From assembly GCA_000165425.1 (NCBI GenBank), contig CT868119.1, positions 550,994-570,993 of the forward strand: DNA of 20,000 nucleotides, in the 5' to 3' direction. This DNA comes from Paramecium tetraurelia. Lineage: Eukaryota. The notes below the pieces were generated by a model. That model did not search any database, was not told where the DNA came from, and saw only the letters and a list, made by a program, of their open reading frames with translations. Positions 2,138 through 17,725 of the stretch are shown in pieces. The number at the start of each line of letters is the position of its first letter. The stretch's first letter is position 1. A program made the position numbers and the translations under genes.

Positions 2138-5100
2138 ATGACACTTTCTTTTGAGTTATTGAATTTGAGACCAACGCCTCTAAGATTTGATATCTGGCCT
2201 TTTGTCATTGGTTATATTGCTCTGTACTCTTGGTGGAGTACATTAGATGAAGAGGCCCCTGTCGAAACAAATAATATAATGGATAAAATAAATAAGGCAA
2301 CATTCTAAGGAGCTGAGAGTATTATAATGTTGAATATGTAGTTTATAATGATGAAGTATATTATGAGTCAATGGAAAATATTTACGCTAGATTAACTTTT
2401 ATCGGATTGGTGTTTTTTCATTCATTAACATACATGAGTTCATTTTGGTCTGTGTCGATGAAATCTAAAATTAGATATTTTTCAGGAGGGATCAAACTCA
2501 GCTAAGAGAATGTTAGAAATTACAAATATTGCAAAGTCTAATTCGCTAAACAACAGAAATCCTACAGCGAAATTGTAGCAATACAATCTGATTCATCTAA
2601 TAAATTCTGGATCTAATTTATGGAAAACAAATATTTTTATGACTAGACAAAAGAATCGTTTACCAGATAAAAACCAAATGTTAAATTTAACCTTCAGAAT
2701 TTGGAAAGTCTTGAGAAGTTAGAGGAATATGAAAAGAATTCCTTACTTATCCCAATGAAAAAATTCAACGAAGTATTAAAGGATTAATTAATGGAACCCT
2801 TCTCATTCTTTCAGATATTTAGTGTATCCCTATGGTTATTGGATGAAAGCAGGATATATGCTCTATTTACTCTATCAATGCTCTTTTTCACATCCTGTAC
2901 TGTGGTCATATAAAGAATGAAAACTATGTTGACTCTTAGATAAATGAAATTGAATCCACAATTGATTACAGTCTACCGCAAAAACTAATGGACTAAAATT
3001 TCCTCTGAATTACTTGTTCCTGGAGATGTAGTCATATTATAAACTGCAGAGTAAATCAAACCTGCTGCTAAGGACAATAATAATGATGATGAACAGTTTT
3101 TAAGATAGCAGATTCCCTTTTCAAAGCATTTGCCGCCTAAATTGTTTTAAGTAGAAACCATGAATGTTGATTCTTACAAGAATGTACCATGTGATATTCT
3201 ATTATTAAATGGTTAAGTAGTAGTTAATGAGTCCATGTTGACAGGAGAGAGTGTTCCATAAGTTAAGGAGGGAATCAATAAAAATTAAAATGAACACTTG
3301 GACATCAAAAATAAGCACAAATAAAATGTAATATTTTGTGGAACTGAAATCATACAATTATAAGGGAATGCACAATATCCATCTTATATCAATAATGCTT
3401 AAAATTAGTCTCATTGTTTGGGCTTGGTGTTAAGAACAGGCTTTGATACTGCAAAAGGGAAGTTGATTAAGACTGTCTTCTACAATAATGAAAATGCAAA
3501 TGCTAAATAAACAGATGGACTATTTATAGTGGTAGTCTTACTCATCTTTGCCTTATGTGCCAGCGCATATGTCTTGATGAATGGACTTTAAGAAGAATCC
3601 AGAAACAAAAATAAACTATTTATTAGATGTATATTGATTGTAACTACTGTTGTTCCACCTGAACTGCCAATGATTTTATCAATAGCTGTGAATTAATCTT
3701 TAATGATGTTGTAACTGAGAAAAATCTTTTGTACAGAACCTTTCAGAATTCCATTGGCTGGAAAGGTAGAGGTTTTGGCTTTTGATAAAACTGGTACCTT
3801 GACTAATGATACTTTGTTATTTACTGGAATTGTAGATAATTGTGTTAATAGAGGAACAAAGTCAAAAAGCGATTGTTCCTTGTATTGCTAACAAATCTTG
3901 GCTGGTTGTAATCAATTAATATATGCTGATAATAAATTGCAAGGTGATCCTATCGAACTCTTATTTTTTTAACAAAATAATCCATGGAGTATTTAAACCT
4001 AACAAAAGTATGCTTAAAATAAGGATTTAGGCATTTTCCTTTATTAAAAACAAGTATTCTCCTTCAAGAGTGATTTAAAGAGAATGAGCACTGTAGTCTA
4101 GGTTGATTAGAAAGGTCAAAGACATTATAGAATATTAGTTAAAGGTGCTCCTGAAGCATTATAATCGCTATTCTAAGAAGTCCCAGATGAGTATGAATAC
4201 TGTTATTAACACTATTCGAATTTAGGATACAGAGTACTGTGTTTGGCGGATAGAGAGATTGAGGAATATGAAAATCAAGAAAGAGAGGAATTAGAAAAGA
4301 ATTTAGTGTTCCGTGGATTCCTAATTTGCGAATCCCCTTTGAAGCCTGACACTCAATAATGGATTAAAAAATTCAAATCAAGTTATTTTCAACCCATCAT
4401 TATTACAGGAGATAATTTACTTACTGCAATAGCAGTTGGTAAATAATTATAATTACATGATAACAAAAAGACATATATCCTAGATTATCAGGATAATAAT
4501 TATGTATTAGTTGAACATGGCAATAAGAATATAAAAGTGTTGAGCAATGTAGAAAAGGAACTTACAAAAACAGAAGGAATGTTGTGTATTTCATCATCAA
4601 TTATGGTAAAATTAGAAGAATAGCATTTAATCAAACTGATAATACATTTCAGTATCTTTGCAAGAATGTCACCAAAATAAAAAGAAACTATCGTTATTTA
4701 GTTCAAAAAGCAAGGTAAAGGTGTGTTGATGTGCGGAGATGGCACAAATGATGTTGGAGCATTAAAAAAGGCTGACGTTGGAATTGCCTTAGTTACCAAT
4801 TAGGGAGAGTAATAGGAAGAGATAGATGAAGAAGAGGAGGAGAGAGTGGCTAATTTATCATTTACAGATCAATTATAGTAAGTTAAAAAATAGTAGATGG
4901 AGATATAAAAGTAAATGAATGAAGCCAAAGGAGATAAGGAGAAGATGAAGAATATTGCTAATTAACATCTGCAACAATAGGCCGCTGGGTTGTTTGATAT
5001 GGGACCAAGTTATAAGTTTGGTGATGCTTGTATTGCTGCTCCTTTTACATCAAAAATGTCTACGAGCATTAGATGTGTTCATACTATTGTCAAATAGGGA

Positions 5101-5809
5101 GTCTGTACTTTAGTGACTACAATTTAAACTTATAAGATTATGGCCTTATAAAGTGTATTAAACGCATATTCTTTAAGTGCCTTACATATGCAATCATTGA
5201 AAATGAGTGAAACTCAAATGACTCTAATGGGAATCTTAGGAGCTGCTTATTATTTCTGCTATTCTTCAGCTAAAGCTTAAAGGAATTTATCAAAAGTAAA
5301 ACCAAGCTTTTCCATTTTTGAATTTTCCTTTTTCATTTCATTGACACTCCAAATCGTATTGCACGTATGGTCTATGCACTTTGCTATACATCATATAGCT
5401 ATGCCAAATATGACTATTGAAGAAAAGGAAATTAAAAATGAACTTGAATTTAAGCCTACCTTTTTGAATACAACAGTGTTTCTACTGCAGTTATTACAAC
5501 AAAGTTGTATATTTTTATTCAATCATCCTGGAGAACCACATATGCAAAAGATTGATGTGCGTTCTAAATTTTTCAAAAGCTTGGTAACAGTCTTAATGAT
5601 ATTTTTAGTTTGTTCCTCTTATCTTGTGTATAATATCAGCATTTAACTACAGTGACATTTTGAATTCTTATCTTGAACTAACATTCCCTCAAAATCAAGA
5701 GGTAAGTTTACAATTGACTTTGCTTTGCATATTTGTCACAGCAGCAAATTGGGTAATTGAGAAAGGAACCAAGACCTTAAAATACAAAAAATGGTATGGA
5801 TTTATATGA
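2138..5809 (+). CDS. P5A-type P-ATPase (Spf1/ATP13A1-like ER transmembrane helix dislocase), 1207 aa
   Basis: Motifs [33 protein letters not shown] (P5A-type M4 motif), [13 protein letters not shown], phosphorylation site FDKTGTLT (3781-3804), [13 protein letters not shown], and a helical insertion before [12 protein letters not shown]. Introns 2319-2341 (23 nt) and 5584-5608 (25 nt) restore the frame. Many internal TAA/TAG codons read as Gln. Confidence 0.95.
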
Positions 5810-12852: not shown

Positions 12853-13622
12853 ATGGAATATAATGAAATAAAGTAACAGGTAACCAAATGATAAATTCTA
12901 GATTGTTTCCAATATAAAGGAAAACAAATAAAAAATTAAGGACCTTTAAGTATTCTTGAAAACCTAGCACAATGAATATAGTGAGGCGTAAGAAAAGTTA
13001 GAGGAAGAAAAATAAAGAAGGAGAAAGGCAAAAAGTTCAAAAAACAAATTTTCTAGCTTTGAAAATGCAATCAATAGACCCCCATTTTTTAGTGCTACTC
13101 ATGTTTAGTAAACGTTTCATGAATAACCATTTATTGACAATGAAGTACCAGCATTGACAGCAACCTAAAAAGAAGAACTTATTATGCCATAAAGAAATAA
13201 AAGTCCAAGCTCAAGTATGAATAATAATAATTTTGCAGTTACTTATAAAATTGACCATCCATTATCAAAATTACAAAGCGATTTTCCTGCTTTGAAACCA
13301 AATTAAATGAGTGAAAAGGAAATGAAGAGATTGGAGTATTGGCAAACTATTACAAACTAAACAACAAAGTTGTAAATCGAAGAAGTACTGTTTTATTTGA
13401 CATTAGCAAAATAAATAATTGATTGGAAGTTTGAAGAAAAAAGAATTAGAATAAAAACATACATAAGTATTTTAATTAGCAAATACAAATTTACGACTTT
13501 TGGACCCTAAACCATCATTAATCTCAGAAAATCCATTAACACCAAGAAGACTATAAAAGCTAATAACTTTGCCAAGATTATATGAAAAAAAAGTGTGGAC
13601 TCCTAACAATAATTATTTTTGA
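12853..13622 (+). CDS. Hypothetical protein, 241 aa
   Basis: ATG 12853 with two 22-nt GTA..TAG introns (12880-12901 and 13385-13406) giving a continuous frame to TGA 13620-13622. Confidence 0.75.
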
Positions 13623-13950
13623 TTCATTTTCATTAAATAGATCTAATAAAATAATATTAAATATTGAATAATAACTTATTGCACATTGCAAACACTTAAA
13701 ATTACTCAGTTTTTATATTAATATCTCATCTTTTTTTTTTTTTAAAGTTTTATATTCATTTTCAATAGAAATTATTATAAAATTATATAAATTATCTAAT
13801 GGTTAGGTGAACCAATATATATATCCTTATCTAATTCATAAAATAAACTATTTTAAATAAGAATAGATTTTGTAATAATAATGAAGGAATTGTAATATAA
13901 AATATTTATATATATCCGAAAAAAATAAAATAAAAAATCATTCTTTTTAA

Positions 13951-14180
13951 GTAGATTGCCACCATCCTCAAAAGAGATTCTTTAAAATCTAGTTATATTT
14001 ATCTTTTGGGTCAAGTCTAGTTCGGCTTACACTCTAAAGGTATTAATTTGGCTAAAGTTCTCTTCATTGACAAAAGGTGGTCAAGTGAAGTTCTCTAGCA
14101 AATACCTCACAATAAATCAGTTCGGGTAACGTAAGCCGAACTAGAAATGGTTTATAGTCTCTACATGGAAATAGAGACCA
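13951..14180. ncRNA. Candidate structured non-coding RNA or fold-back element of unknown family
   Basis: Island visibly richer in G/C than its AT-rich intergenic flanks. A perfect 15-bp inverted repeat (14016-14030 / 14131-14145) encloses nested helices, with two further hairpins and a closing stem. Strand not determined. Confidence 0.55.
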
Positions 14181-14371
14181 ATTAATTTTCAAACAAAAAT
14201 AATATTAAAAATTTAACAGAAAATTTACATTTAAATAGTTAAATCAAATCGGTTTGTGAATAAAATGAAGATTAATTAATATTAGCAATTCTTAAAGAAC
14301 CATAAAAATTTATATTCTGTAATTTAAATATATATATAATAAGAATTAACACAGCATTATTCAAAGTAAAA

Positions 14372-14652
14372 TCACTTTCTATATTCATTTTTAAGTATTT
14401 TTATCTTGCATTGATCTTTGAGAATCTACTCAAAGTAATATTTTTTCTCTATTTTAAAATCTCTCTCTGACCTTTCCTCTGATGAGAGTGCAATTTCTTT
14501 ATTTTCATAGCCCTAAAATGTCTTCTGCACTCTATTTTACTATAATTTGTAAAGTCAAAATTACTTGGTCATACCTAGCCAGATTTGAAGCAAATGATTA
14601 AATTGAAAATGTCTTGTAATCTTAATTAGATTAAATAACATTGAAGAATCAT
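14372..14652 (-). CDS. Possible small hypothetical protein (weak model)
   Basis: Coding-like frame YKTFSIQSFASNLARYDQ|QNRVQKTFQGYENKEIALSSEERSERDFKIEKKYYFEQILKDQCKIKILKNEYRK* using a 25-nt GTA..TAG intron. Reaching an ATG requires a second, atypical 19-nt intron. Confidence 0.3.
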
Positions 14653-14750
14653 ATTATAAAATAATGAGACAGTATATTTCATATATATATATTTAAATAA
14701 TAAAAGAAATATCTGTATAATTAAATCTTGTTGCTTAAATGTAATATATT

Positions 14751-16840
14751 TCAAACAATGTTTAAAAATAACTTTAAGTCTTTTACTAACTACCAGTCAT
14801 CCAAAGTTAAGTCTTCTCTGTAATGTTCTTTTAATATATCAATAGCTCTTCTTGTAATCTAAGGAAATGAAATCATTAAATACCAAACTTGCTAGTTTTG
14901 TTTCTAAAGTGATTTGCTTTCCAGCCTATATAGCTTAATTTGTTCCAATTCTTAAGGCAACTGCTCCTGTGGTAGCTCTGGCTTCTTTCAAACTCTTATG
15001 ATTTAATTCAATAGTCTCCACAATTCCAATTTTATTTTTGTTACTATTTTAATCATAAATGCATAAAGGTGTTCCTGTTTTTAATATTCCTTATTCAACT
15101 TCAACACCTAAAATTAATGGCTCCTTTGTATTGATAATACGAACTATCTAATTTAGTATTAAAGATTTAATACCTTTAATAATGAGGGAAATACAACATC
15201 AGCAGCTTCCTTTTTCTTTCTTTCTTCTTTGACTTACTTAATAAACTCAGTAAACTTAGTAAATAAATGATAAATGATGTTTGCTTCAAAAATCTTGATT
15301 TAATTTTCCTCAGCAAACTTCTAAGCATCAGGCAATATTTTTACATCGAAAACCAACATACAAGCATATCTAGAAATTACATATATATATACTCTTTCTT
15401 TCTTCTATTTACATCTTCCAACAGCACATTTTTCAAGGCTTTCATTACATCATCTTTTGATACTGGCCCAACGCTAACATATGAAACAGGAATGTCTTAA
15501 CTATTCAAATATTGTAGAAGAGCTTCTAATGAACCCAAAGTAGATGCTGCAACTCCCACTCCTTAATTTTATAGTTTTATGTATTTTTTGACCTCCTCCA
15601 TCTCATTATTAATTATTTCGGTTGCTCTATCGATATCTTCTTAGGAATTAGCCAAATACATCTGAGATCCTGCCATAGCTTCCTCTAAACCTACTGCAGA
15701 TATTTTTAGACCCATAGATGCATATATAATATCATGATGAATATACTCGCCTTTAACTCTCATTTCTTTCATTGGATGAGGAGTTAAAAGAGCTCTCACC
15801 TTAGTTACTATGGGGCCTTGGAAACCTGCTAATATAATTTTGTCATCCTTTTTTATTTGACCATCAATCAATAGGCAATCTATTGTAGTACCATGTCCCT
15901 CTGTAACTTTCTTCTCTAACACAGTACAATTGAATTATTCCTTAACTTTAATTTTATTCTTCATATACACTGATGTGTATTTCACGATTACGGACAACAA
16001 ATCAGGAATACCTTCTCCAGTGAATCCAGATGTAGGGACGACTGAAATGTAAGTTTTAGGATCTTCATTCTCCCAAAAAAAGGCAACATTGAATCCTTTC
16101 TCTGCTAGTTAAGTAATCACCTATTGTCTTTTTGTATCATAATCCATTTTACAGTTTTTAGTTTGATTTTATAATTGATAATATGAGGAGGCATTTTTCT
16201 TATTTTTCCATTCAACACATCTATCTATTTTGTTCAATGCAATAATAAATGGAGTTTTTCTCAACTTTAATAGTTCTAAGGATTCCAATGTTTAATTTTC
16301 TAATCCATGCATTAAATCAATAACTAAAATAGCTAAATCACACAAAGATGATCCTCTAGTTCTTAGGTTGGAAAATGATTCATGCCCAGGTGTATCAATA
16401 ATTAATAATCCAGGGATATTGCAATCAACTGGATAGAACTATTAAGTTTTTATTAGCTCCTCTTTCAATTTCTTGGCTGGAAAGAAGGTAGCACCAATTT
16501 ATTATGTAATACCTCCTGCTTCACCCTCTTAAACATTAGTATTTCTAATCTTGTCTAAAAGAGTTGTCTTACCTGTATCAACATGTCCTAAAATACAACA
16601 AATAGGAGATCTTAATTCACCTACAGGTTTGTATAAATCTAAAATTTCTTTCTTTATTGTTGAAGAATAAGATTATTGTAATATTTATTATTCTTATTAT
16701 CTTTTTTAATCTTCTACTTGTTGTTTTTCTTATTTATCTTTCTCCTGTTATAGTTATTCCGCTTCTCCTTCCTCAACAAATTGTTCCCAACTTTCGATAT
16801 CCTCAACTTCATTTTATTTTATGGTCACTTCCTCTTTTAC

Positions 16841-16884
<44 letters not shown>

Positions 16885-17725
16885 TCTAAGGTTATTATTT
16901 TATTTCTGCTGCTTATTATTATTTTTCAGGCTGCTTTTATTCTACTTTTTATTCAGGTTGTACAGTTTCTTCTGGTTTTTATACTGTTGCTTCTACTTAT
17001 TGATTCTGCTGGCCTGGTTGTTTTTTTTTCTTTTTCACAATGTTCGATTTATTACCAGCATCATCTACTTTAATTCCTAATTATTCTCTCATGAATTTAA
17101 GCTTCTCCTCCTCTTCAAGTTGTTTTTTTGTTTTATATTCCCCCTTCTTCAATAACTCATCTTTTTTCTTTTACTTGTCTTACCTTCTCTTTTCCTCTTC
17201 TTACTTTCTGCGTTCCTCTTCCTCCTATTCAATTCTTATTCTTTCTTCTTCTAATTTCCTTAATCTTTCTTCTTCTTCCCTTATTTTTCTTTATTCTTCT
17301 TCCTTTATTTTTTGCATCTCAAGTGCTTTCTAAGCTGCAGCATTTAGCTTTTTTCCTGGTTTCTCTGGTTTTTTTTCGGGGACCTATGCTTATTATTATT
17401 ATGGCTATTGTTCTGGCACATTTTTCTTCTTTTCTGCCTATTTTGCTTTTTTTTCCTTCTTTTTTTCAGCTTTCTTTTTTGCTTCTTCATCCAATTCTTA
17501 TTCTTAGGGTGCCTTAGATGCTAGTATTTTATCTAATTCATCATCTGAATCATTCTTTTTATTTTTATTTTTTTTTGTTTCTTTTTTTGTATTTTTAGGT
17601 CCCTCATCCTTTAGAGCCACTTATTCTTCTGCTTCATTTTCTTCTTCTACTTACAAGAACTTAGAGCCTTCATTTTAAGGTTCTTGATCTGATCCTTCTG
17701 ATTCTTCTTGTAAAAATTTCGACAT
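14751..17725 (-). CDS. EIF5B: Eukaryotic translation initiation factor 5B (IF2-family GTPase), 966 aa
   Basis: Translation includes [89 protein letters not shown] and C-terminal [21 protein letters not shown]. Long K/E/Q-rich N-terminal extension. Introns at 14859-14883, 15148-15173 and 15370-15392. Confidence 0.97.
16844..16882 (-). repeat. (TAA)13 trinucleotide repeat encoding poly-Gln inside eIF5B
   Basis: Thirteen perfect TTA units on the + strand, in frame as TAA codons on the - strand: PQK-Q13-KVKEEV. Confidence 0.9.

Follow-up and report, generated by a model that had tools for sequence, protein, structure and literature searches.

A strongly folding intergenic RNA in Paramecium tetraurelia corresponds to the published cluster 22 siRNA locus

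Close to the end of a Paramecium tetraurelia macronuclear scaffold, an intergenic island of about 230 nt (positions 13951-14180 of the window, the whole 20-kb stretch of DNA analysed here) is predicted to fold back on itself with unusual strength. This raises the question of whether the island is a novel non-coding RNA, as an earlier note made from the sequence alone had suggested, a remnant of a mobile element, or a locus that has already been described. The window takes up the final 20 kb of macronuclear scaffold_22 of P. tetraurelia, a scaffold of 570,993 bp (offset 550,993), and its last 300 bases show no telomeric repeats. Its GC content is ~27%, and long open reading frames appear only under a code in which TAA and TAG stand for glutamine. 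One of them, spanning 2371-5655 with 1,094 codons, encodes a P5-type ATPase that is 99% identical to a P. tetraurelia macronuclear protein.

The gap that contains the island extends over 1,128 bp (13623-14750), and the mean intergenic length in the genome is given as 352 bp (Lepère 2009, Table 3 footnote). To its left lies a plus-strand gene (ORF 12863-13585), for which homologues are annotated in P. octaurelia (91%) and P. sonneborni (64%), and to its right a minus-strand gene for an eIF5B-like translational GTPase. Within the latter, a (TTA)n/(TAT)n run at 16835-16900 codes, on the minus strand, for Q13 in the N-terminal low-complexity region. The longest ORF of the left gene has its stop at 13583-13585, with another TGA at 13620-13622, and the RNA contigs of this gene end at 13615 and 13671. 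Since the published intergenic region starts at 13623, directly behind the second TGA, the annotated model of the left gene ends in a different frame. The frame is probably changed through a small intron.

Identity with cluster 22

The intergenic sequence surrounding the island is in print. Supplementary Fig. S5 of Lepère 2009 gives it as scaffold_22:564616..565743, located between GSPATG00008920001 and GSPATG00008921001, and the printed sequence agrees with 13623-14750 of the window at both ends. In the accompanying table, nine siRNAs are placed at 564980-565161 on the plus strand. After subtraction of 550,993, all nine of these cloned ~23-nt siRNAs have exact matches on the plus strand of the window between 13987 and 14168, with seven distinct starts (13987, 14007, 14034, 14053, 14061, 14127 and 14151). 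The nine clones derive from one strand throughout, at least five carry untemplated A tails, and seven begin with U (Lepère 2009). Furthermore, the two 50-nt northern probes for cluster 22 siRNAs, which Marker 2010 (PMC2896523) places at 564980-565079 of scaffold 22, correspond to 13987-14086.

Later work has described the genetic requirements of these siRNAs. According to Marker 2010 (PMC2896523), the cluster 22 siRNAs need RDR3 and their top strand is dominant. Marker 2014 (PMC4066745) names the locus cluster22 and reports that its siRNAs are lost in rdr2-1.24, while dcr1 mutants have little or no effect; the text of that paper gives the function of the siRNAs as unknown and treats dsRNA production at the locus as speculative. 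In Table 2 of Carradec 2015 (PMC4330347), cluster 22 is an intergenic entry of 331 bp; its counts of poly(A) transcripts are 466 vs 2, and 70% of its siRNAs are antisense and ~30% sense. The same paper presents cluster 22 as the ncRNA among three Rdr2-dependent, secondary-like clusters and as Rdr1-independent. Cluster22 is also one of the three example loci with coverage tracks in Fig. 7 of a preprint (10.1101/2020.08.24.263970), according to its legend, "Endogenous sRNAs in Ptiwi IPs".

The island and cluster 22 thus share the same DNA, siRNAs, probe coordinates and transcript strand, and the sizes lie close together (331 bp as published, 292-308 nt here). We see no difference between them, and the sole addition made here is an unusually strong fold. 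The island is the published cluster 22 siRNA locus with its ncRNA, and the proposal of the earlier note that it constitutes a novel ncRNA is thereby refuted. Searches of two further sources gave nothing for this scaffold: none of the 15 lncRNAs in Supplementary Table 1 of Bechara 2022 (PMC9297840) lies on scaffold 22, and one supplementary file of Karunanithi 2019 holds no scaffold_22 entry.

From 2009 on, cluster 22 has served as a standard northern-blot marker for Paramecium endogenous siRNAs, and a report of its poly(A) ncRNA followed in 2015. The locus itself is therefore nothing new and should not be counted as a new RNA family. What is gained is that the strand and the ends of the cluster 22 RNA are now fixed in window coordinates. 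In addition, one feature appears to have gone undiscussed, namely that nowhere in its 20-kb neighbourhood does a stretch fold more stably than the putative RdRP template. In a word search confined to the main texts of Lepère 2009, Marker 2010, Marker 2014 and Carradec 2015, the terms hairpin, stem-loop, secondary structure and inverted repeat did not occur for this locus. Should sibling species share the fold, it could bear on how RDR2 and RDR3 choose this transcript.

A discrete minus-strand transcript

To describe the RNA, reads from four sequencing runs (X17, X18, X20 and X24) were placed on 13500-14600. Three of these runs, X17, X18 and X20, are not recorded as RNA and were judged RNA-like by their behaviour, as they contain exons and lack intergenic DNA. 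The fourth, X24, is a stranded oligo-dT run, of which raw reads were used. In each of the three RNA-like runs the island is covered by an isolated contig. More specifically, the contig spans 13896-14203 in X17 (island depth 5.75, with no contig for the neighbouring gene), 13898-14202 in X18 (depth 98.8, against 77.5 for the neighbour-gene contig) and 13896-14187 in X20 (depth 84.5, against 13.3). Depth is zero at 13685-13869 and next to none at 14203-14600. In X24, read pairs cover 13907-14202 with a depth of up to 23, and every first mate lies on the plus strand, whereas every first mate over the plus-strand neighbour gene lies on the minus strand. This opposite orientation indicates that the island RNA is made from the minus strand.

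Together, these data delimit a cluster 22 ncRNA transcription unit of ~292-308 nt at 13896-14203 on the minus strand, corresponding to scaffold_22 ~564,889-565,196. They bear out the earlier suggestion of an independently transcribed structured RNA, both through the isolated contigs of 292-308 nt in three RNA-like runs and through the one-strand oligo-dT reads. As the cluster 22 transcript had already been published, the read placement amounts to an independent confirmation and not to a discovery.

Around the ends of the RNA, a few sequence elements were noted. A TATA-like string, TATTTAAAT, occurs on the minus strand at 14229-14237, 26-34 nt upstream of the 5' ends of the contigs; it was found by eye and is a possible promoter element, although strings of this kind are common in the AT-rich DNA of this region. 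Toward the 3' end, a U-rich tract of the form U6-A-U4-A-U7 (13919-13937, minus strand) is situated ~20-40 nt before the end of the RNA. The contigs run on through the U6, U4 and U7 runs to 13896-13898 in all three runs. This read-through argues that the T runs do not act as terminators for RNA polymerase III here and that the RNA is unlike a Pol III product. Given its recovery by oligo-dT and the read-through of the T runs, the island RNA is probably polyadenylated and a product of RNA polymerase II.

Among the reads listed, none carries an A tail at the 3' end of the RNA. As pure speculation, an A tail, if present, could fold back onto the U6-A-U4-A-U7 tract, tracts of this type being common in the genome; looping of the 3' end has been reported for the Tetrahymena RdRC, as mentioned in Carradec 2015 (PMC4330347). 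Separately, X20 contains an 81-nt contig with a depth of 2 in which 13919-13936 is linked to 14190-14215 through six other letters. Faulty assembly in AT-rich sequence probably created this chimeric contig, a rare rearranged or back-spliced molecule being the other conceivable source.

The coding capacity of the locus depends on the strand. Read by eye under the ciliate code, the longest complete ATG-to-TGA ORF on the minus strand comprises 19 codons, and nine TGA codons were counted by eye on the same strand. A small-ORF mRNA was ruled out on these grounds, there being nine TGA codons and no complete AUG-to-UGA ORF of more than 19 codons. On the plus strand, an ORF of 177 codons (13881-14414) is open under the ciliate code, and no RNA was seen from that strand. 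The earlier statement that the island has no convincing ORF holds for the transcribed minus strand.

The RNA was also compared with known families. A search of the whole window with Rfam 15 returned 0 families at gathering score, and ARAGORN found no tRNA or tmRNA. At a permissive threshold of E <=10, the region 13700-14450 yielded just two rows, both far below threshold. The first belongs to the model of the bacterial ES003 sRNA (13797-13843, minus strand, 23 bits against a threshold of 37, E 0.043) and lies outside the RNA; it sits in untranscribed AT-rich spacer, and we treat it as chance. The second is a plant miRNA model that tracks the long hairpin with 15 bits against a threshold of 95. 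Together with the reading by eye, these searches led us to reject the classical RNA classes.

Predicted fold of the island RNA

All seven helix arm pairs described earlier for the island were found in place by a sequence check, four of them perfect and three imperfect. The central element is a perfect helix of 15 bp (14016-14030/14131-14145), the arms of which lie 100 nt apart. It closes a long imperfect hairpin of ~130 nt (14016-14145, minus strand) with a predicted apical loop at ~14072-14079. Inside this hairpin follow a perfect arm pair (14038-14044/14101-14107), an imperfect pair (14051-14057/14093-14099) with one A-C on the plus strand that becomes G-U on the minus strand, and a further imperfect pair (14062-14071/14080-14090) with a single bulge. 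A second hairpin arm (13967-14010, minus strand) is formed by the imperfect pair 13967-13975/14002-14010, which has a single wobble on the plus strand, and the perfect pair 13961-13965/14147-14151 provides a closing stem. Near the 5' end of the minus-strand RNA, a separate hairpin (14155-14180, minus strand) has the perfect pair 14157-14163/14172-14178 as its core and comprises 10 pairs in the minus-strand fold.

The strength of this fold was assessed at several levels. The 15-bp helix is the sole perfect inverted repeat of at least 15 bp with a loop of at most 150 nt in the 20-kb window, and at least one such repeat appeared in just 9 of 300 block-shuffled windows (mean 0.04). Folding of 13951-14180 gave -61.4 kcal/mol for the plus strand (z -4.23) and -68.7 kcal/mol for the minus strand (z -6.31), and on each strand 0 of 200 shuffles reached an equal value, in keeping with the structured character claimed before. 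As a local control, stretches of 230 nt starting at 495 positions of the 20 kb were folded for both strands. Among these 990 windows, the island occupies ranks 1-4 by raw energy and is still first after regression on GC. The shuffle z-scores and the top ranks establish that the fold of the island sequence is genuine and well beyond chance. As a predicted structure, supported here by calculation, it may form and matter in the cell.

For the whole 308-nt minus-strand RNA, the predicted energy is -81.0 kcal/mol (z -7.16), compared with -65.3 kcal/mol for its plus-strand complement, and G-U pairs number 13 on the minus strand against 4 on the plus strand. The much better folding of the minus strand agrees with the transcribed strand. 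The strand, previously considered ambiguous, can now be assigned separately for the two kinds of RNA: the long RNA is minus, as given by X24 and in line with the G-U count, and the dominant siRNAs are plus.

Two further observations concern the 3' arm of the long hairpin. The motif AGTTCGG occurs twice on the plus strand, at 14019-14025 and 14120-14126, and its complement at 14135-14141. Owing to this repetition, the 3' arm could pair either in the long-range 15-bp helix or in a local 7-bp hairpin (14120-14126/14135-14141), the latter being a possible alternative fold of the island. In addition, the 3' arm has 23 nt at 14108-14130 that look inserted when it is compared with the 5' arm.

Origin of the siRNAs

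We consider it very probable that the island makes up the body of the cluster 22 ncRNA gene, and that its ~300-nt minus-strand RNA is a template or target of the RDR2/RDR3 siRNA pathway. The sequence of events would be as follows. An RNA of ~300 nt without a usable ORF is transcribed from the minus strand as a unit of its own. A pathway that depends on RDR2 and RDR3 would then use this ncRNA as a template or target, giving rise to ~23-nt siRNAs. These are mainly antisense to the ncRNA (window plus strand), often U-initial and, in conjugating cells, provided with untemplated A tails, and they are present in Ptiwi13/14 immunoprecipitates. The ncRNA may be the direct template of an RdRP. The ~30% of siRNAs in sense orientation are unexplained by simple copying of one template.

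As for the fold, our best guess is that it arose from an old inverted duplication and would stabilise the RNA or flag it for the RNAi machinery, without itself being a substrate of Dicer. A more far-reaching idea is that the hairpin acts as a built-in trigger. Sister transcripts would be recognised at the opposite arm, either by sense small RNAs derived from one arm or by the stem in its folded state, and RDR2/RDR3 would thereby be recruited, so that antisense "secondary" siRNAs would be produced without primaries made by Rdr1. If true, this would explain why the siRNAs are independent of Rdr1, depend weakly on Dcr1 and are sense in 30% of cases, and cluster 22 would be a natural model of RdRP template choice. 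We regard this extension as doubtful.

A different origin would trace the palindrome, as a relic, back to a fold-back or MITE-like element or else to an internal eliminated sequence, with the RNA and the siRNAs as by-products of genome defence and with both the RNA and its fold devoid of function. Inverted repeats are common triggers of RNAi, and the perfect 15-bp arms resemble terminal inverted repeats with a TA inside each arm end. As the TA belongs to the palindrome, it does not testify to a target-site duplication. The texts of PMC4066745 and PMC4330347 describe the siRNA function as unknown, which would be compatible with such a relic. On the other hand, no second copy of the island exists within the 20-kb window, and each of the nine siRNA sequences is listed at one macronuclear position only, in a table of Lepère 2009 that gives several for multi-copy sRNAs. 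The exact arm-gap-arm pattern gave 0 matches in metagenome contigs; a search of metagenomes for orthologues of the protein encoded to the left gave 517 pattern matches, of which none was confirmed. Moreover, the markedly better folding of the minus strand, with its 13 G-U pairs against 4, fits shaping at the RNA level. The mobile-element origin that the earlier note had entertained thus finds no support in the copy number within the window, in the macronuclear places of the siRNAs or in the metagenome search, and we judge it unlikely.

The hairpin could also be the precursor of miRNAs or hairpin siRNAs, in which case small RNAs would be cut from the stem of one folded transcript without an RdRP. 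An imperfect hairpin of ~130 nt with a perfect 15-bp closing helix has a suitable shape, the strand bias of the first nine cloned siRNAs is absolute, and the ~30% of siRNAs that are sense to the RNA could come from a stem. The position and polarity of the cloned siRNAs argue otherwise. The only long RNA seen is opposite in polarity to the dominant siRNAs, the siRNA at 14061-14084 spans the apical loop, and two more lie largely within predicted loops. Those that start at 14007 and 14127 in the two arms are offset in a manner unlike a duplex with 2-nt overhangs, a register judged from nine sequences only. Antisense polarity, loop coverage and arm offset together make the cloned siRNAs unlike dicing products of an intramolecular hairpin. 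In the genetic data of PMC2896523 and PMC4066745, the siRNAs depend on RDR2 and RDR3 for their accumulation and hardly respond to dcr1 mutations, and Karunanithi 2019 reports that no miRNAs were identifiable in Paramecium. A Dicer-cut hairpin is therefore very unlikely to be the source.

That the island is a housekeeping RNA missed by Rfam (snRNA, snoRNA, SRP RNA, RNase P/MRP RNA, telomerase RNA or vault/Y RNA) is next to inconceivable, because a discrete, abundant and structured RNA of ~300 nt would suit such a class, but this one reaches no Rfam family at gathering score, is null in ARAGORN, is recovered by oligo-dT, is transcribed through three T runs, is a source of RdRP-dependent siRNAs, and has no template, box C/D, H/ACA or P4 motif seen by eye.

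Taken by register, the seven siRNA starts are confined to 9 of the 23 available ones (post hoc p ~0.017, n=7), which is at most a weak hint of phasing.

Small RNA loci in other systems offer points of comparison. In plants, TAS loci produce a polyadenylated non-coding transcript that is converted into small RNAs via an RdRP. By analogy, cluster 22 would resemble them as a non-coding poly(A) transcript turned into small RNAs by the same type of enzyme; it differs in that it has no known miRNA trigger or trans target, and phasing is weakly suggested. Another parallel, already drawn by Lepère 2009, is provided by the 23-24-nt siRNA clusters of Tetrahymena thermophila (Lee and Collins 2006, 2007), which are likewise clustered, strand-biased, RdRP-linked and vegetative. 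In Tetrahymena, Dicer is coupled to the RdRC, whereas dcr1 alleles have little effect on cluster 22 (PMC4066745), and both the organism and the loci differ.

Within Paramecium, similar cases are the dsRNA-induced secondary siRNAs and clusters 17 and 51. According to PMC4330347, these share with cluster 22 a length of ~23 nt, a strong antisense bias relative to a polyadenylated transcript, dependence on Rdr2 and independence of Rdr1. In contrast to the 70% of cluster 22, the antisense share in clusters 17 and 51 is 97% and 98% in the table of that paper (>95% in its text). Clusters 17 and 51 are mRNA clusters, while the putative template of cluster 22 is non-coding, intergenic and, by prediction, highly structured, and its siRNAs also need RDR3.
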